Part shown: positions 648-7,886 of the stretch, in pieces
Numbering within the stretch: position 1 is the stretch's first letter
Layout: the number at the start of each line of letters is the position of its first letter
Virus record (IMG/VR): IMGVR_UViG_3300048573_000453
Coordinates: 1-32,420 of that record
Length of the DNA stretch: 32,420 nucleotides
From: a virus
Taxonomy: Duplodnaviria > Heunggongvirae > Uroviricota > Caudoviricetes
Reading direction: 5' to 3' (one strand)
Program-made: the position numbers and the translations under genes
The notes under the pieces: generated by a model
What the model saw: the letters and a program-made list of their open reading frames with translations, nothing else
Told to the model about the DNA's origin: nothing
Database searches by the model: none

Positions 648-986
648 TCATTTTGATTCTGGTTTTTTGGTTGGCGATAGTCGATTGTTCCCTGTTGTCG
701 GGGACCATTCATTAAACGATGCATAGGGAAAGTTTGATGTCCAAATTTCCGTTTCTCCGATTCTGACTGTGTATTCATCTACAAAAACAATCGGTTCATC
801 AGAATCCAGTAACGCATTCAGTTTTACGTCCCATTTACCTGAAACAGGATGTTGCAGAAGAAATTCTGGGAATATCCAGACACACCATTTTGGAGGAAGA
901 AACCGAAGCGAGGTCATCACTATCAACAGCCATACAAATGCGGCTAAAGTAAAAACGAGCACGGCGAACAAAATAAATTCTAGCAT
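648..986 (-). CDS. Hypothetical membrane-anchored protein
   Basis: 112-aa ORF, N-terminal TM segment, AAGGGG RBS-like sequence upstream, promoter at 1012. Confidence 0.65.
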   Translation of the reverse strand: MLEFILFAVLVFTLAAFVWLLIVMTSLRFLPPKWCVWIFPEFLLQHPVSGKWDVKLNALLDSDEPIVFVDEYTVRIGETEIWTSNFPYASFNEWSPTTGNNRLSPTKKPESK

Positions 987-1002
987 TTAAAGCCCCTTAA
1001 AA

Positions 1003-1034
1003 GATAGTGCAATTATACTGCGAATTGCACTATC
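1003..1034. terminator. Perfect 12-bp inverted repeat; possible terminator/operator overlapping a -10 box
   Basis: GATAGTGCAATT-N8-AATTGCACTATC; on - strand followed by TTTT; contains TATAAT (1012-1017, - strand). Confidence 0.5.
1012..1020 (-). promoter_or_regulatory. Putative early promoter -10 element
   Basis: CAGTATAAT on - strand, 25 nt upstream of ATG 986. Confidence 0.5.
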
Positions 1035-1045
1035 TCGTTCAAGTT

Positions 1046-1655
1046 TTAATTTAAGATTTTGGCTTTAGACGCGGTATTGCGAGTTTCGGCATCAAGAAAA
1101 TATTCGATGACATCCCTTTTTGTGCTATCATCTTCACTACTTTTCGTGAAACCAGACATATTGATAGGAACCATTGTGGCTGCAACAACATGCTGCAGAT
1201 CAAAATACAGCTTGAATGAACCACCAGATTCGAAGTCAGAGATACCACGCTCGATACTATCAAGAATTTCAGAAATGGAAGACGCATAAGCAATTACTTG
1301 CTCTGGAGAAGGATGCCCAAGGAAATCAGACAAGCAAGCGCTGCCCGCCTGTTTGTAGCTGTCACCATTCTTAACGACGAACGTTGCATTACGCTTGCGA
1401 TCAATACCACAGTGTTCACAAGTCGAAGGACTGCTAAAACGATAGTGTTCCGGAACTGCTTGGCCGGCAATCGACTTTACGATTGCAGTTGCACCATCAG
1501 CTTCAATCTTACCCACAAAAGACCAACCGTTCAACTTCGGTGCTTCACCTTGAAATGCTACCTCAGTAAAAGACCGAATCGTATCATCTTTTTGCGTCAC
1601 CATCTTAGTGCCAAGCACTTCAACAGTAGGCAGGGGTGTTGAGTTTTGTGTTCAT
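1046..1655 (-). pseudogene. Truncated, frameshifted paralog of the 5219-6394 gene
   Basis: LGTKMVTQKDDTIRSFTEVAFQGEAPKLNGWSFVGKIEADGATAIVKS is near-identical to the full copy. ATG 1655 gives MNTKLN, then an ~23-codon deletion with frameshift. Similarity stops at RN, exactly where the 27-bp repeat begins. Confidence 0.85.
1055..1081 (+). repeat. 27-bp direct repeat, copy 1 (insertion boundary)
   Basis: GATTTTGGCTTTAGACGCGGTATTGCG, identical to 3474-3500. Confidence 0.95.
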
Positions 1656-1661
1656 GTAAGA

Positions 1662-1670
1662 ATTATACCA
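1662..1670 (-). promoter_or_regulatory. Extended -10 promoter, probably leaderless transcript
   Basis: TGGTATAAT-N6-ATG(1655); TTGAGA at 1684-1689 (16-nt spacer). Confidence 0.65.
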
Positions 1671-1732
1671 CGACTTTCAGCAATCTCAACCCCAGGGAAC
1701 ATTTTTAAACTCATACAATCCAGACTTCAGTT

Positions 1733-2566
1733 CTAAGCTACGCAGTTACTTAGATAGTATTCGTTATTTTCTTTTTCAATCTTTGAGACAGTTTTATAAA
1801 GGTCCCCAAAAAAATGAATTTTAACACTGGCGTTCTTAGAAAGGTTTTCAAAAAGCATATTTGGCTTTCCATTCAAAACCCCACTCAAGCCAAATTTGGT
1901 TTCTGTGGAAATCAAATTATTAATATACTGAAGAAGCCGGCAATCATCGTCACTAGACCAAGTGGTGTTATAACCCGCATTGGTATTGCTATAAGGCGGA
2001 TCAATATAGACAAATGAATTTTCCGGTATTTGGATTTTTTCATAAGAACCGGAAAAGAATTTAACATTATCTGGAACATACCGTTCTTTGTAAATTCGTA
2101 AGGTTTCTGCTTTAGAAATATTAAAACCCCTTTTACCCCAGGTCTGGTTAAACTTCCCAGTTTTATTGAAGCGCATAAAACCACTATTACATGACCAAAT
2201 TAATGCCAACAATTTGCATGGGGTTGGAGAAGTATTAAAACTGTCTCGCAGCCTATTATAGTTTTCTTGGCTATCTATCGTTGCTGTGGATAGGGCAATC
2301 GACCTATTAATGAACTCTTCATCTAACAAATTTTGATGAATTTGTATCAACATTTCTAGAGAATCATTTGCGATAATTTGTGGATAAATGTTTGACACAT
2401 TCATGTACACGCTTCCGCCACCCGCAAATAAATCCAAAAACGTATCAACGTCTTTTGGAAACAGTGGCAATAATTTATCCAAAAGGTTAAATTTGCTGCC
2501 AATATAATTGATTGGTGATTTAAACATACTTGGCTTAGTGATATAAATCGGCAAATTCACAGACAT
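1733..2566 (-). CDS. dam: N6-adenine DNA methyltransferase (Dam/D12 class)
   Basis: SPINYIGSK N-terminus, motif I DLFAGGGSV, motif IV DPPY; size typical of T4 Dam. Confidence 0.9.
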   Translation of the reverse strand: MSVNLPIYITKPSMFKSPINYIGSKFNLLDKLLPLFPKDVDTFLDLFAGGGSVYMNVSNIYPQIIANDSLEMLIQIHQNLLDEEFINRSIALSTATIDSQENYNRLRDSFNTSPTPCKLLALIWSCNSGFMRFNKTGKFNQTWGKRGFNISKAETLRIYKERYVPDNVKFFSGSYEKIQIPENSFVYIDPPYSNTNAGYNTTWSSDDDCRLLQYINNLISTETKFGLSGVLNGKPNMLFENLSKNASVKIHFFGDLYKTVSKIEKENNEYYLSNCVA

Positions 2567-3039
2567 TTACTGCCGCCTTCCCAATCTGTTACGCATAAAA
2601 AATTCCCAAATGCTGTAAAGACCCTATACATTCCTTTTGTGTCATCATCAGTAAAGAAACATCCCTGGCTTTGGCGGTTATAAAATTTTGATTCTAGTAG
2701 TTGAGCTTCTTCCGTATCCAGGAATTTTAATATTTTGCCATGTTCGCGAGCACATTCAATTTCGCCAGCGACACCCACAGATGAATCCCAACCAGAAAAC
2801 TTTAGAACCCAAACTTCATCGCAGCGTGCGATAATTGTTCTACGTGTCTTACCCCAATCACCCCATGTAGCAGTCACGCTCATGAATTTCAGAATTTGGT
2901 AATCCTGGACCATCGGTGCAATAAAAGTATGTTCTGGAAATTTAGTGTGAAGATCCGCAAGCATCTTTAGAAACTTGGGTGTTAATTGGCCATTTTCAAC
3001 TGTGCCGGCAGTAGGAATAGCGGTGAAAATGAGTGACAT
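2557..3039 (-). CDS. DUF1937-like / nucleoside 2-deoxyribosyltransferase-fold protein
   Basis: ..IIARCDEVWVLKFSGWDSSVGVAGEIECAREHGKILKFL matches this family pattern. Start reassigned to ATG 3039 (MSLIFTAIP) because AGGAG lies 6 nt upstream and two TATAAT promoters lie in the ORF-track extension (to 3198). Confidence 0.65.
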   Translation of the reverse strand: MSLIFTAIPTAGTVENGQLTPKFLKMLADLHTKFPEHTFIAPMVQDYQILKFMSVTATWGDWGKTRRTIIARCDEVWVLKFSGWDSSVGVAGEIECAREHGKILKFLDTEEAQLLESKFYNRQSQGCFFTDDDTKGMYRVFTAFGNFLCVTDWEGGSKCL

Positions 3040-3067
3040 GTGTTCTCCTGTAAAAGTGTTTAAAGAA

Positions 3068-3076
3068 ATTATACCG
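3068..3076 (-). promoter_or_regulatory. Putative early promoter -10
   Basis: CGGTATAAT upstream of the AGGAG RBS and ATG 3039. Confidence 0.55.
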
Positions 3077-3121
3077 CAAGCTTGGCCGTCTGGGTTCACT
3101 AACTTTTGTCCAGCTAGCATA

Positions 3122-3130
3122 ATTATACTA
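3122..3130 (-). promoter_or_regulatory. Second tandem -10 element
   Basis: TAGTATAAT 54 nt upstream of the 3068 element. Confidence 0.45.
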
Positions 3131-3173
3131 TCAACCAATTTGGGGACCCCATGAAACTGCTTTGCAGTTACTC

Positions 3174-3479
3174 GAAAATAAGCAACAATTTCCATCAACT
3201 AAAGAAGAAGTGGAGTGGAAATTAAAGAGGTTAGATGTAAAAAATACACCATCAACAGTGATTTGACAGTTGATGTAGATGGTGTTGTGAATCTTTCCTT
3301 GAAAAAGTTGTCATTCTTTTCCTGTAAAATTTGGGGTAGTTAGTGGAGACTTTGTCTGTTCTCAAAACCGATTGACCACTTTGCGTGGAGCACCCAGGGA
3401 AGTAGGTGGAAGTTTTTATTGCCATCGAAACCTATTGAAATCTCTTCTCGGTGCACCTAGAGAAGTAGGTGGGGATTTT
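3174..3479 (+). pseudogene. Remnant of LRR-array family gene
   Basis: Reads KQQFPSTKEEVE..LKRLDVK/YTINSDLTVDVDGVVNLS../PVKFGVVSGDFVCSQNRLTTLRGAPREVGGSFYCHRNLLKSLLGAPREVGGDF; frameshifts at A6 (3239-3244) and T4 (3317-3320); cut at the 27-bp repeat; no start codon. Confidence 0.85.
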
Positions 3480-3853
3480 GGCTTTAGACGCGGTATTGCG
3501 TTCCCACACATTTCTACAAAGTCATACTTTTCATGCATTGAACTTAATTCTGATTCCCACGCACGCAATATTTGAACCGATTCTCCACTAGTTTCATTCA
3601 TGAAAAAGACGGCCTTTTCGCCCCTATGAATTTCAAATTCCTTTATTTTGTTCTCAATTGATGCCCGCACTGAATTTTCACGTTCCTGTTTGGCTTCGGG
3701 CGCATCCATTTCATACAAGAAATCTAATTTCTTGTCGTATTGTTGCAATCTAATAGCGACTAATTCGTCAACAGTTGCGCCCTGTAGGTAGTCGCCATTA
3801 CAGGGTTCTGCTTCTTCAAGCTGTTCTTTAAAATATATTGCTGGATTTGTCAT
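3416..3853 (-). CDS. Hypothetical protein with C-terminus altered by the insertion
   Basis: 145-aa ORF directly downstream of nadV; last ~19 aa (PPTSLGAPRRD..) are antisense LRR sequence. Confidence 0.7.
   Translation of the reverse strand: MTNPAIYFKEQLEEAEPCNGDYLQGATVDELVAIRLQQYDKKLDFLYEMDAPEAKQERENSVRASIENKIKEFEIHRGEKAVFFMNETSGESVQILRAWESELSSMHEKYDFVEMCGNAIPRLKPKSPPTSLGAPRRDFNRFRWQ
3474..3500 (+). repeat. 27-bp direct repeat, copy 2 (insertion boundary)
   Basis: Identical to 1055-1081. Confidence 0.95.
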
Positions 3854-3864
3854 ATTTTGATGTT

Positions 3865-5184
3865 TTATAATTTCTGCACGTAGAATTTTGCTCGGTTGCT
3901 GATTACCTGCAAAGTAACATCCACAAGGAGTTTCCCGTTCTCATAGAAGGTTACCATTTCAGGAGAATCGAGGCGACCACCTTTTGACTTCTTACCGGGA
4001 TCAGTGATTGGATCTTTTACGGTATCTACCCAGACCCCATTGATCAAAACCGCAGAAGTTTTCTGAGCAAAGGAGTAGGTATCGCGATTTACTTTCTGCA
4101 ACAACCCACCGCCAGATCCATAGATAACACACTCAGGGGCAAAGCCTGCATCGTTTACCTTCTGCGCCAAAATTGCTAGAGTTGTTGAATCAATACCATC
4201 ACCCTGAATAACTGAAACATTGTTCAGGACATGCTTGCCCTTTGAGTTTACCGTAGTTCCAAATGCAGCCGCAAGTTTTCGGAGAATCTCGGGAACAATT
4301 TCCATCATGTCGCCACTGTCTGGACGGCACACCCATTTTGCCCCAGATGCAACGATACGATCTTTGAACTTGGTGCAAAGCAGTTCAACTTCGCGCATGA
4401 TATCGTAGCCATCCATCACCACTGAAACAATTGCGCCCGGCTTTGCATATGCATCAAGAATTCGATTGAAATATGCCTCTTGGTTATCTTTACCATAGGA
4501 ACACTGGAGAGAATGTTCCGTGGCGCAAACTGAGTAACCAGCCATATCACATGAATAATATTTTCGTGCTGCTTCAAGAGCAACCACATCATCAGTACCC
4601 ATGAAATAAACCAAGTGTGAAAGTCCGCCAATCTCAGCAGTTTCTTTTGAAGAAACCCCACGACTCCCAAATGAGTGCAGTGAAAATGGCAACATATCGG
4701 GATTATCTGATGCATGGTTATAGAACCATTCAAGCTGCTTATAGTTCTCTCGATCGCGAGATGCGATAGTTGTCGGATACCAGATGCCGCGTTGCAGCGA
4801 GGTTTCGATATAAGATGCGAGCCAGAACACACGGGAGTCAGTGCACTCAACAGTCACAAATGGGGTACCAGATGCAATCGGCACGCCTTCAGGCAAGCCT
4901 CGGATTTTGATAGGCAGATACCCTGCATGCTCTTCCAAAATATATTCCCAATCTTGGCGATTGAAAGGCACACCGTGTTTGCCGGCAATATCTGCTGCCT
5001 CATCAATGTCCGCTTGTGTAATTGGCACCAGCAAATTCTTCTTAATCCACATTTGCAGACCGAACGGGACAATAGTCTGACCCTTTGCTCGTGCTTCGAT
5101 ATAGGAAAACATCCCAGAAGTTCCTTCTGGGTATAAAGCAAAGTGCGAGAATTTATATGAATCGGTATCTGTAATAATTGACAT
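3865..5184 (-). CDS. nadV: Nicotinamide phosphoribosyltransferase (Nampt)
   Basis: DTDSYKFSH, LHSFGSRG, ATEHS, RPDSGD, IQGDG, GSGGGLLQKVNRDT, KDPITDPGKKSKGG motifs of the NAMPT family. Confidence 0.95.
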   Translation of the reverse strand: MSIITDTDSYKFSHFALYPEGTSGMFSYIEARAKGQTIVPFGLQMWIKKNLLVPITQADIDEAADIAGKHGVPFNRQDWEYILEEHAGYLPIKIRGLPEGVPIASGTPFVTVECTDSRVFWLASYIETSLQRGIWYPTTIASRDRENYKQLEWFYNHASDNPDMLPFSLHSFGSRGVSSKETAEIGGLSHLVYFMGTDDVVALEAARKYYSCDMAGYSVCATEHSLQCSYGKDNQEAYFNRILDAYAKPGAIVSVVMDGYDIMREVELLCTKFKDRIVASGAKWVCRPDSGDMMEIVPEILRKLAAAFGTTVNSKGKHVLNNVSVIQGDGIDSTTLAILAQKVNDAGFAPECVIYGSGGGLLQKVNRDTYSFAQKTSAVLINGVWVDTVKDPITDPGKKSKGGRLDSPEMVTFYENGKLLVDVTLQVISNRAKFYVQKL

Positions 5185-5218: not shown

Positions 5219-6394
5219 TTAAAGAGCCTCAGCGAACTCTTTCTTCGTAATTCGAGCACGAGGCTTGAACTTGTTGATAAGTTGACCTTTATATGCCGAC
5301 TTTTCAAATTTCTCAACTTCTGCAAAATCCAGCGTGCCCTTGATTATAACCGAATCGCCAGCTTCAATTTCCATATTCGAGGAAAACATTTTGATCAATT
5401 GGTCATCAGCCGTCCGCATCATCAGGATCTTCGACAGACCATTGTCATAGTAATGGTATGCATCACGTTGGAATGCAGTCGCTGAGATAACGATTGCATC
5501 AATTGCAACTTTTGAACCGGCTTCACCAATAGCAACGTCAGAGAATGGCTTTACTGTTGCAACTGGCTTTGTGCAAGAAAATGCACCTGCAACAACATAT
5601 CCAATATTTGCCAGTGAAACATAGGCGCTCTTTGCAATAGTGCTGACATTATGAGCAAACTTAGTTGTTGAACCCATTGCCTTCATTTTCTCGATGACTG
5701 CTTTGGCTTCTTCAAGATTTTTAGAGATTTCGCTATGAAAAGAATTGCGAACATTTGAACTCAGGAAATACTCAGTCACATCATTCTTGGTGCTATTCTG
5801 TTCGCTGCTTTTTACAAAGCCAAATTTCTTGATCGAAACAATCGTTGCAGCAACAACAAGTTCGATATCAAAGTACGACTTAAAAGAACCGCCAGACTCA
5901 AAATCAGAAATTTCTCCGCCGATTTGATCAAGAACTTCTACCAATGAAGATGCATAGGCAATGACTTGCTCTGGGGAAGAGTGTCCTAGGAAATCAGCCA
6001 TGCAACTTTTACCAACTTGTTTGAACTCTTCCCCGTTCTTGACAACGAAAGTTGCATTACGCTTGCGATCAATCCCACAGTGATCACAGTTCATTGGGTT
6101 GCTATAGCGATAATGCTCTGGAATTTCTTCTCCAGGAACAGACTTAACGATTGCAGTTGCACCATCAGCTTCGATCTTGCCAACAAAGGACCAACCATTT
6201 AGCTTTGGTGCATTACCCTGAAATGCGACTTCAGTAAAAGAACGAATTGACTCGTCCTTCTGCTTCACCATTTTCGTACCGAGGATCTGAATGGAAGGAA
6301 CAGCAACATTCAGTTTCTGTGCCTTCTTTATCAGTTTTCCAAAGGCGACTTGAACAGAAGGAAGCATTTCAGTGGGGATGAGTTTTGTTTGCAT
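5219..6394 (-). CDS. Conserved phage protein with CxxC motif and possible C-terminal OB-fold
   Basis: 391 aa from ATG 6394 (MQTKL); CDHCGIDRKRNATFVVK; beta-rich C-terminus; paralog remnant at 1046-1655. Confidence 0.75.
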   Translation of the reverse strand: MQTKLIPTEMLPSVQVAFGKLIKKAQKLNVAVPSIQILGTKMVKQKDESIRSFTEVAFQGNAPKLNGWSFVGKIEADGATAIVKSVPGEEIPEHYRYSNPMNCDHCGIDRKRNATFVVKNGEEFKQVGKSCMADFLGHSSPEQVIAYASSLVEVLDQIGGEISDFESGGSFKSYFDIELVVAATIVSIKKFGFVKSSEQNSTKNDVTEYFLSSNVRNSFHSEISKNLEEAKAVIEKMKAMGSTTKFAHNVSTIAKSAYVSLANIGYVVAGAFSCTKPVATVKPFSDVAIGEAGSKVAIDAIVISATAFQRDAYHYYDNGLSKILMMRTADDQLIKMFSSNMEIEAGDSVIIKGTLDFAEVEKFEKSAYKGQLINKFKPRARITKKEFAEAL

Positions 6395-6400
6395 GAGCAA

Positions 6401-6409
6401 ATTATACCA
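6401..6409 (-). promoter_or_regulatory. Extended -10 promoter, probably leaderless transcript
   Basis: AAAATCATGGTATAAT-N6-ATG(6394); no SD. Confidence 0.65.
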
Positions 6410-6419
6410 TGATTTTGAA

Positions 6420-6702
6420 TCAGATGGAGTTAAACTCTTCTTCGCTCATCGCCATGTATTCGAGTTCGGTGATTCCATTCCTGTCTACCCCGAAACAGCT
6501 ACCGACAAATTTCCCATCACTCGAATACGCTGAATAGCCATAGCGGTCGAAGCCGTCTTTATCGTAGCTGTCATTGTGGATTTGTTCATCATACGGCTCA
6601 TCCTTCATTTTTTTGCGGGGGAATTTCCCCCTTTGAGTTAAAACCGAACGACTGCTCATTGATATGATACGGCAAAGCTGGCGAGTATTTTCCTTTTGAC
6701 AT
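6420..6702 (-). pseudogene. Small acidic phage protein split by a +1 frameshift in an A7 run
   Basis: AAGGAG RBS then ATG 6702 MSKGKYSPALPYHINEQSFGFNSKGEIPPQK-NEG*; removing one A (T run 6608-6614 on +) fuses it in frame to MKDEPYDEQIHNDSYDKDGFDRYGYSAY. Confidence 0.7.
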
Positions 6703-6746
6703 GGCGAAACTCCTTAAAGTACTGTTGGATTTTGAGTTGATGCCCA

Positions 6747-6752
6747 ATTATA
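6747..6752 (-). promoter_or_regulatory. Putative -10 element for the 6702 gene
   Basis: TATAAT upstream of the RBS at ~6709-6714. Confidence 0.5.
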
Positions 6753-7016
6753 ACTCAGTATCTTGCCAAGTGGAAGGATTGGCCCCAAAATAATTCAGTC
6801 TTCTAAAGGCTAAACTGCGCTGAGTTTAACTCTCATGGATGAGCTGTGGTGAATCGCCCGGTAAAATGCTCGGACGTCTACTTTAGTTGCCACAAAAATT
6901 CTTGGTAAGCCCATTTAGGAGGAAAGGCACTTGATTTAGCTTTAGGATTGGCCCAGTTAAATGAAAAATTAGCACTACATAAGAAATTGCGTGTTTTGTA
7001 AAAACGTATGTGTTAG

Positions 7017-7024
7017 CATAAATA
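7017..7024 (+). promoter_or_regulatory. T4-like late promoter candidate for the LRR array
   Basis: CATAAATA (T4 late consensus TATAAATA) 28 nt upstream of ATG 7053. Confidence 0.45.
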
Positions 7025-7052
7025 CTAACAATCTATAATTTGGGGCAGTATC

Positions 7053-7886
7053 ATGAAATTAAAACAGTTGTTTGAATCAGTAACTAAACAAGACGTCGAA
7101 TCTATCCTTAAAAAATACGGAATTGAGAACTACACCATCAATGATGACTTGTCAGTAGATGTAGATGGTGATGTGTTCTTAAATGACCAGAACCTAAGTT
7201 CGATTCCAGTTAATTTTGGTAAGGTAAGCGGGGATTTTATCTGTTCTTCCAACCAATTAAAAACTTTAGAAGGCGCTCCAAGAGAAATCGGGGGGAAATT
7301 TGCCTGCTCTAACAACAAATTAACTTCTTTGCAAGGTGCACCTAGAGAAGTTGGTGGAGATTTTAATTGCTCTTACAACCGATTAACATCTTTACAAGGC
7401 GCACCAAGAGAAGTCGGCGGGCATTTTTATTGCTATCACAACAAATTAACTTCTCTGCAAGGTGCACCTAGAGAAGTCGGCGGGCATTTTTGGTGCTTTG
7501 CTAATCAATTAACATCTTTAGAAGGTGCACCTAGAGAAGTCGGCGGGCATTTTTGCTGCCGCAGCAACGAATTAACCTCTTTGCAAGGAGGTCCTAGAGA
7601 AGTAGGTAATGGTTTTGACTGTTCTCACAACCAATTAACCTCTTTACAAGGTGCTCCTAGAGAAGTAGGTGGTGTTTTTGATTGCTCTGAAAACCGATTA
7701 GCATCCTTACAAGGTGCACCTAGAGAAGTAGGTGAGGATTTTTTCGGCTCAAATAACCAATTAACCTCTTTACAAGGTGCACCTAGGGAAGTAGGCGGAG
7801 ATTTTAGGTGCCGTTGTAACCCAAATTTGACCTCTCTCGACGGAATCGGTAATGTCGCCGGGGAAATTAGAAGCGATCTATCATGA
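7053..7886 (+). CDS. LRR-like repeat protein 1 (10 x 21-aa units)
   Basis: MKLKQLFES leader, YTINDDLSVDVDGDV cap, repeats GGxFxCxxNxLTSLQGAPREV, C-cap LTSLDGIGNVAG. Confidence 0.9.
   Translation: MKLKQLFESVTKQDVESILKKYGIENYTINDDLSVDVDGDVFLNDQNLSSIPVNFGKVSGDFICSSNQLKTLEGAPREIGGKFACSNNKLTSLQGAPREVGGDFNCSYNRLTSLQGAPREVGGHFYCYHNKLTSLQGAPREVGGHFWCFANQLTSLEGAPREVGGHFCCRSNELTSLQGGPREVGNGFDCSHNQLTSLQGAPREVGGVFDCSENRLASLQGAPREVGEDFFGSNNQLTSLQGAPREVGGDFRCRCNPNLTSLDGIGNVAGEIRSDLS

Follow-up and report, generated by a model that had tools for sequence, protein, structure and literature searches.

A 2.4-kb cassette with a dam gene as a probable presence/absence polymorphism in a T4-like phage population

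Phage genomes are mosaics in which novel joints form at a few shared bases, inside genes and without a dedicated recombinase; the modules then spread through their flanks, and pieces that are not under selection decay. Martinsohn et al. (2008, PMC2327257) discuss such mosaicism, in which genomes are first joined illegitimately or at short homologies and their flanks then take part in homologous or homeologous exchange. In the hyperplastic regions of T4-type phages, close relatives differ by small insertions and deletions of accessory genes, and modules are shuffled through promoter-early stem-loops (PeSLs; Arbiol et al. 2010, PMC2839356; Comeau et al. 2014, PMC4122927). The window analyzed here, a stretch of 32,420 nucleotides (nt), is the first 32 kb of the 96,420-bp IMG/VR virus record IMGVR_UViG_3300048573_000453 (CheckV completeness 27%), and belongs to an uncultured T4-like or T4-related phage. 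Near its left end, two exact copies of a 27-bp direct repeat, GATTTTGGCTTTAGACGCGGTATTGCG, enclose 2,392 bp that carry a gene for a Dam-family DNA methyltransferase. This insert is probably an accessory cassette of 2.4 kb that some members of a natural phage population carry and others lack; it would have been captured in another lineage and brought into the present one later by homologous recombination, and its intact genes are probably expressed.

The locus shares with phage mosaicism the joints that lie in genes, the lack of a dedicated recombinase, the decayed ends and a probable later spread by flanking homology. Compared with phage mosaicism in general, it offers both alleles, a proxy of the donor locus and a very short linked tract, all in one natural population, and its duplication happens to keep the whole target open reading frame (ORF). 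The features are listed in Table 1.

The direct repeat marks the site of insertion. An exact 27-bp pair has an estimated chance expectation of about 3e-8 in 32 kb, and similarity is lost sharply on both sides beyond the 27 bp. The sequence-only reading that preceded this analysis had reported the repeat at 1055-1081 and 3474-3500 and had proposed that deleting the interval restores a clean gene end, and both statements proved correct. In silico removal of the interval and one repeat copy turns the gene for a 145-amino-acid (aa) protein into an ORF of 127 codons that ends in GNAIPRLKPKS and a stop codon, followed by the hairpin/promoter of the 648-986 gene. The original stop of the shorter gene is the TAA at 1051-1053, where another frame is now read as the tail of a broken gene within the insert.

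Database searches uncovered the empty site itself. Among database proteins, the 145-aa product has a 99% identical match of 127 aa that ends in PRLKPKT and is encoded on 11 contigs. DNA of this empty allele, compared on seven metagenome contigs (L010 to L016), holds a single repeat copy (25/27 identical) that leads directly into the hairpin/promoter, and a 112-aa gene is called 62 nt past the 127-aa gene wherever a contig extends far enough (L010, L013, L015). The predicted junction of the target gene with the hairpin/promoter thus exists, although the gene ends in PRLKPKT rather than the predicted PRLKPKS. A pattern scan of IMG/VR for both types of empty junction gave no match. The short 127-aa form is ancestral, since more distant homologs, with aa identities of 65% and 58%, have their stop codon at this point too, after IPFLKLK and IPHLKSKC.

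The filled allele occurs on seven further contigs from other samples (L017 to L022 and L032), found by exact look-up of the Dam and 145-aa proteins and 100% identical to the window wherever compared. Contig L017 runs from window position 3604 down to 1 and further. Both junctions are spanned by L018 and L019, the left one only by L020, and the right one by L032, which approaches it from the side of the NAMPT gene; L021 and L022 lie entirely within the insert. Both alleles are present in samples 3300046359, 3300046093 and 3300046367. The repeat and the insert are not an assembly chimera, a possibility that the sequence-only reading had raised against itself, because at least seven independent filled assemblies, which together cover the left, the right or both junctions, show zero differences and three samples hold both alleles. 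In addition, the Logan unitig L019 covers 3512 to 992, so that on either side it extends 30 nt past the last difference between the alleles, and the end of L016 lies at the corresponding place in the empty allele. This is what a graph bubble would give with k=31, a value that is our reading.

Comparison of the two alleles outside the insert reveals a single cluster of differences. Between the filled allele (window and L017) and the empty allele (L010), 7,302 nt to the right of the insert and 1,885 nt to its left, about 9.2 kb in all, agree throughout but for eight differences, at 1063 and 1056 (both in the left repeat), 1047, 1036, 1035, 1033, 1026 and 1022. The resulting patch covers part of the left repeat, an AT-rich spacer and the 5' arm of the hairpin. 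Its window-type sequence is AAAGCCAAAATC followed by TTAAATTAAAAC, and the window-type variants are carried in AAAGCCAAAATCTTAAATTAAAAC. The two in-repeat differences, one of which is the S/T change of the last codon, also occur in the right copy at 3482 and 3475, so these variants are older than the duplication. None of the seven sequenced empty contigs contains the window-type variants, and no 127-aa form ending in KPKS exists in a collection of 15 billion proteins. It follows from the patch differences that the sampled empty allele is neither the immediate parent nor the excision product of the filled allele. No excision through the repeats was seen, and every sampled empty site has another haplotype of the 42-nt patch. 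The patch also suggests that the capture did not take place in exactly the present genome background.

The hairpin next to the left repeat has a PeSL-like layout, with a stop codon, an AT-rich spacer, a -35 box, a stem-loop over the -10 box, a Shine-Dalgarno sequence and an ATG. In the empty allele it is less perfect: three or four of the eight changes perfect the stem, with -28.8 kcal/mol in the filled versus -21.2 kcal/mol in the empty allele in a 100-nt context. The spacer that separates the -35 box from the -10 box of the 648-986 gene is 19 nt in the filled allele (window 1012-1043) versus 18 nt in the empty one (L010, about 7325-7360). Moreover, the insert sets a strong promoter (1689-1662) about 650 nt upstream of the same gene. 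Given the altered spacing and hairpin and the new upstream promoter, expression of the 648-986 gene may differ between the alleles.

Comparative analysis with PeSL systems shows partial agreement. As in those systems, close relatives differ by the gain or loss of small accessory genes, the site adjoins an intergenic cassette with PeSL layout, and the insert brings its own promoter. Unlike in PeSL shuffling, however, the repeats are 27 bp of coding sequence rather than two PeSLs, the right junction lies within a gene and a broken leucine-rich repeat (LRR) fragment, a PeSL-like motif stands at the left flank only, and the hairpin is not repeated in the 96-kb record, where a search allowing up to 3 mismatches found no second copy. 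The ends of the insert cut through genes, which argues for illegitimate joining rather than PeSL-to-PeSL homologous exchange. The event is therefore classed as ordinary illegitimate recombination with subsequent homologous spread; it is assigned neither to PeSL shuffling nor to the transposons, integrative elements or homing cassettes.

The cargo of the insert consists of two intact genes, dam and a DUF1937-like gene, in agreement with the sequence-only reading. The product of dam scores 118 bits against PF02086 (E 7e-34; cut-off 22) and 123.7 bits against TIGR00571 (cut-off 114.85); with the curated cut-off passed and both catalytic motifs present, its sequence places it in the Dam family of DNA-(adenine-N6)-methyltransferases. 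No restriction partner accompanies it. In these respects, including the FxGxG and DPPY motifs, it resembles the orphan Dam enzymes of T4-like phages (T4 Dam; TIGR00571/PF02086), yet it differs from them in lying in a movable accessory cassette that only part of the population carries. The closest Dam relative (72% aa identity) belongs to another T4-like phage of the same sample series, where its gene lies between those for the topoisomerase II subunits, and a scan of IMG/VR with dam found 71% relatives only. GATC occurs in the window at 0.72 of expectation, a mild under-representation that says little about the role of dam.

The second cargo protein remains just below the Pfam gathering thresholds for DUF1937 and DUF4406 (21.7 bits versus 23, and 18.2 versus 22). 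It matches phrog_355 at E 2e-7, and its nearest Atlas clusters are viral DUF1937/DUF4406 (score 0.92). Both cargo genes are probably expressed, because they are intact and co-oriented with the flanking genes and a promoter lies within the cassette. They are also probably the reason why the cassette is retained; a benefit such as predicted methylation of phage DNA against host restriction is speculative.

The two ends of the insert have a different character. They had been read as broken homologs, a minus-strand paralog of the resident 5219 gene on the left and a plus-strand LRR gene on the right, and this description holds with a refinement: judged by their internal frame lesions, both are pseudogenes. 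The left fragment shares 74% nt and 73% aa identity with the resident 5219-6394 gene, with homology that extends up to the codons CGCAAT. The ORF that starts at its ATG (1655) stops after 11 codons, while the remainder is open from a GTG at 1618 to a stop at 1046. Relative to the resident gene and to its counterpart on contig L029, it lacks 69 nt between two K-L codon pairs and carries a frameshift after codon 8, and these lesions cause the early stop. Its promoter shows homology to the resident gene's promoter region near 6400 and is now directed through the pseudogene to the 648-986 gene. The LRR gene start on the right is readable only with at least three frame changes, and its LRR-unit homology extends up to GATTTT. 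Its antisense strand supplies the 18 residues that follow all 127 original residues in the 145-aa form. Domain searches found no transposase, integrase or nuclease domain in the ORFs of the insert, and its ends have no terminal inverted repeats.

Table 1. Features of the cassette, its flanks and the resident homologous locus (window coordinates)
Feature	Position	Strand	Description
Downstream gene	648..986	-	112 aa; 62 nt past the 127-aa gene in empty alleles
Perfect 13-bp hairpin	1002..1035	-	Overlaps -10 box TATAAT (1012-1017) of the 648-986 gene
42-nt patch	1022..1063		All 8 allele differences outside the insert: 6 substitutions and 2 single-base indels
Left repeat copy	1055..1081		Original 3' end of the 127-aa gene: AIPRLKPK codons, last two bases of N codon and first two of S codon
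phrog_2319 paralog pseudogene fragment	1076..1655	-	About the N-terminal 215 of 391 residues; ends at R-N codons CGCAAT
Insert	1082..3473		2,392 bp, filled allele only; missing from seven empty-site contigs
Sigma-70-like promoter of paralog fragment	1662..1689	-	TTGAGA, 16-nt spacer, TG-TATAAT; 11/12 matches
Dam-family N6-adenine DNA methyltransferase gene	1733..2566	-	Intact, 277 aa; FAGGG at residue 47, DPPY at 189
DUF1937/DUF4406-like gene	2557..3039	-	Intact, 160 aa; nucleoside 2-deoxyribosyltransferase-like PHROG
Decayed LRR gene start	3151..3479	+	ATG at 3151, N-terminal cap, two 63-nt units; ends after GGTGGG-GATTTT
Target gene	3416..3853	-	145 aa in filled allele, 127 aa in empty alleles
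Right repeat copy	3474..3500		Within the 3416-3853 gene; variants at 3475 and 3482 are those of the left copy, relative to empty alleles
Resident homologous locus	5219..7886		phrog_2319 gene 5219-6394 (-), 79-aa ORF 6420-6659 (-), first LRR gene 7053-7886 (+)

Searches point to a type of locus as the source of the insert, though not to the donor itself. Contig L029, from another phage, carries an LRR gene start on the opposite strand, a gene for a 117-aa protein with weak DUF1937/DUF4406 matches, a phrog_2319 gene, other genes and a NAMPT gene. This order and orientation are those of the insert, and the position corresponds to that of the resident locus. At the nucleotide level, L029 and the insert share 82.8% identity over the paralog; over the initial 308 nt of the DUF1937-like gene the value is 79%. 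The phrog_2319 protein of L029 (P0124, 388 aa), which came up in a search for longer homologs of the paralog fragment, is 86% identical to the paralog fragment, versus 73% for the resident protein, and a maximum-likelihood tree joins the fragment and P0124 with 98/99 support and places the resident gene apart. The gene order and orientation on L029 and this grouping together support an origin of the insert from the homologous locus of a related phage, as had been proposed from the sequence. A recent copy of the resident locus was considered and rejected, as the paralog reaches 74% identity and long LRR matches at most 80%, versus 100% for the repeat. Within the 96-kb record, the resident gene is the sole match of the paralog fragment, and there is no second copy of either dam or the DUF1937-like gene. 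LRR matches of more than 50 nt stay at or below 80% identity, and a stretch of 48 nt reaches 83%.

The cargo region itself appears to be composite. Only the first 100 or so residues of the DUF1937-like protein are homologous to the 117-aa protein of L029, and its C-terminal 60 residues are unrelated to it. From about 1690 to 2740, a segment that spans dam and these C-terminal 60 codons, the G+C content is 0.35-0.375, versus about 0.44 on each side. Given this low value and the lack of dam on L029, dam is probably a nested, earlier acquisition in the donor lineage. The interval between phrog_2319 and the LRR genes occurs in three versions, with the 79-aa ORF at the resident locus, a DUF1937-like gene on L029, and a DUF1937-like gene plus dam in the insert. 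The sequence-only reading took the interval between phrog_2319 and the LRR array as a possible cargo slot, an idea to which these three states lend themselves. A conserved link of phrog_2319 with LRR genes in distant relatives was examined and rejected, as the context of the relative P0133 has no LRR neighbor; relatives of phrog_2319 in cultured phages, among them Aeromonas phage phiAS5 and Cronobacter phage S13, are remote, at under 30% aa identity. Nucleotide searches of a GenBank phage collection in near and distant modes gave no match, nor did a scan of metagenome contigs with the alignment of the paralog. Scans of IMG/VR found no relatives of the 145-aa, phrog_2319 or DUF1937-like proteins, and a scan with NAMPT found one unrelated context (L009).

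For the donor, the joining mechanism and the order of events, we infer a course in two steps. The cassette would begin in a relative of the L029-like clade whose divergent LRR / DUF1937-like / phrog_2319 junction already contained the low-GC dam. A piece of this locus, cut within the LRR and phrog_2319 genes, would then have entered the last codons of a 127-aa gene by illegitimate recombination. Read along the minus strand, the path would leave the target at AAAATC, pass into the LRR fragment, and return from the paralog fragment at CGCAAT. Re-entry 27 nt upstream of the exit would create the 27-nt duplication; switching templates twice, or joining co-infecting genomes at two short homologies, would yield it. 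The outcome keeps all 127 target codons and adds 18. Microhomologies of 6 nt at the two junctions are plausible when judged from paralogs: CGCAAT occurs at the homologous codons of the resident paralog, and GATTTT follows GGNGGN in many resident LRR units. In the second step, homologous recombination, perhaps over repeated co-infections, would have carried the cassette into the present background together with both repeats and about 40 nt of the left flank from its place of origin. Of the foreign flank linked to the cassette, recombination would have left about 40-60 nt on the left side and less than about 20 nt on the right side.

Several observations weigh against this course. No donor with the order paralog-dam-DUF1937-LRR was found in IMG/VR, the metagenome contigs or the protein collection, and its best proxy, L029, is only about 83% identical at the nucleotide level and has CTTAAC where the CGCAAT microhomology is assumed. 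No lineage with the postulated original flanks is among the sampled sequences, and the second step depends on eight differences in one patch. That patch could also be standing variation in a fast-evolving intergenic hairpin, and the changes that perfect the hairpin could stem from a single templated mutation. Finally, the many frame-breaking lesions in the ends suggest age, yet the repeats are 27/27 identical.

Among the rival explanations, direct capture in this very strain, the literal model of the sequence-only reading, is the likeliest, though still unlikely. It would make the patch unrelated standing variation or mutation within the same repair event, and it accounts for flanks that match the empty allele everywhere outside the patch and for two identical repeat copies, as expected of one duplicated target. 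Quasipalindrome-templated mutagenesis is known in T4, and one such event could perfect a hairpin, which fits the three or four of the eight changes that perfect or extend this stem. However, eight differences within 42 nt, against none in about 9.2 kb, are hard to accept as coincidence. The in-repeat variants also predate the duplication, yet no empty site with them appears on the seven contigs or as a KPKS-ending 127-aa protein. A source within the genome, namely a copy of a second, diverged phrog_2319/LRR locus in an unsampled part, would suit a phage with many LRR genes in two arrays, of which only 96 kb at 27% CheckV completeness are at hand. This explanation has little probability, as the record contains no further copy of dam, the DUF1937-like gene or the paralog, otherwise identical genomes lack the cassette, and the insert copy groups not with the resident gene but with the gene of another phage at the orthologous position, which adjoins an LRR gene and lies near NAMPT.

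A self-mobile or nuclease-driven element, whether transposon-like, attachment-site-based, a PeSL mini-circle or spread by homing conversion, would explain the repeat as a target duplication or attachment site and the patch as a co-conversion tract. Clustered changes beside the insert do look like such a tract, and the left junction does adjoin a PeSL-like promoter hairpin; clustered flank changes alone are not diagnostic, however, and neither the insert ORFs nor nearby genes contain a transposase, integrase or homing endonuclease domain or an HNH, GIY-YIG or LAGLIDADG match. With no terminal inverted repeats, a PeSL-like motif on one side only that is unique in the record, and insert ends that lie within two broken genes, an element of this kind is highly improbable. 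A Campbell-type single crossover of an excised circle into the sampled empty allele was rejected, as it predicts chimeric repeats and an empty-type patch, neither of which is seen. In a related and quite doubtful proposal, the cassette would be no passive relic but would spread by a drive of homing-like gene conversion: filled genomes would serve as templates for the repair of breaks at the empty site, and the patch and repeat variants would form the co-conversion tract. Such breaks would be made by a nuclease with its gene in another part of the phage, or by a host restriction enzyme against which the cassette's own Dam protects; if true, dam would be self-promoting cargo. Recombination between 27-bp repeats is mechanistically possible in T4-type phages, so an empty allele could in principle derive by deletion from an ancestral cassette. 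This has next to no probability, and the same applies to an assembly artefact. Distant homologs of the target gene stop where that gene stops at the empty site, and two positions in both repeat copies, as well as the adjacent patch, set the filled allele apart from the empty ones. At its ends the insert has truncated copies of genes that are located elsewhere, and at least seven independent assemblies agree base for base.

The insert documents, base by base, the gain of accessory genes by a large T4-like phage in nature. It shows side by side a target with alleles that co-occur in the same samples, a proxy of the donor locus, junction scars, unselected ends in decay, and a linked tract so short that it hints at intense recombination. 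A population-polymorphic orphan Dam methylase is, moreover, testable as an anti-restriction trait. The case is well documented but ordinary phage gene shuffling by a mechanism of a known kind, and it leaves current views of phage mosaicism unchanged.

Further observations concern the related loci. The 79-aa ORF of the resident locus is called as a gene in related contigs, has no family match, and is unrelated to the DUF1937-like gene at the same position on L029. A comparison of L029:4981-6396 with window 3865-5184 shows that the nearby NAMPT genes are 37.6% identical, next to 73% aa identity for phrog_2319. L029 also has three extra genes between phrog_2319 and NAMPT and lacks the 127-, 112- and 124-aa genes, a strongly mosaic neighborhood. 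Among the empty-site contigs, L013 (735-1907) encodes the resident phrog_2319 gene in a 390-aa form rather than the 391-aa one, a small indel polymorphism. A Logan contig from SRR35180666 with the empty site (genes at 1923-2306 and 2772-3146) has no call for the 112-aa gene at unchanged spacing, and this gene may be a variant or broken copy there. In the phage with the closest Dam relative, the replication genes are interspersed with an IS605 OrfB/TnpB (Cas12f-like) gene and a GIY-YIG gene of the SegE type (L023:15649-16872). Across the whole window, GTAC (0.32 of expectation), ACGT (0.45) and TATA (0.39) are strongly rare, and TGCA and AATT reach about 1.8 times expectation; restriction avoidance or codon effects may account for these skews.

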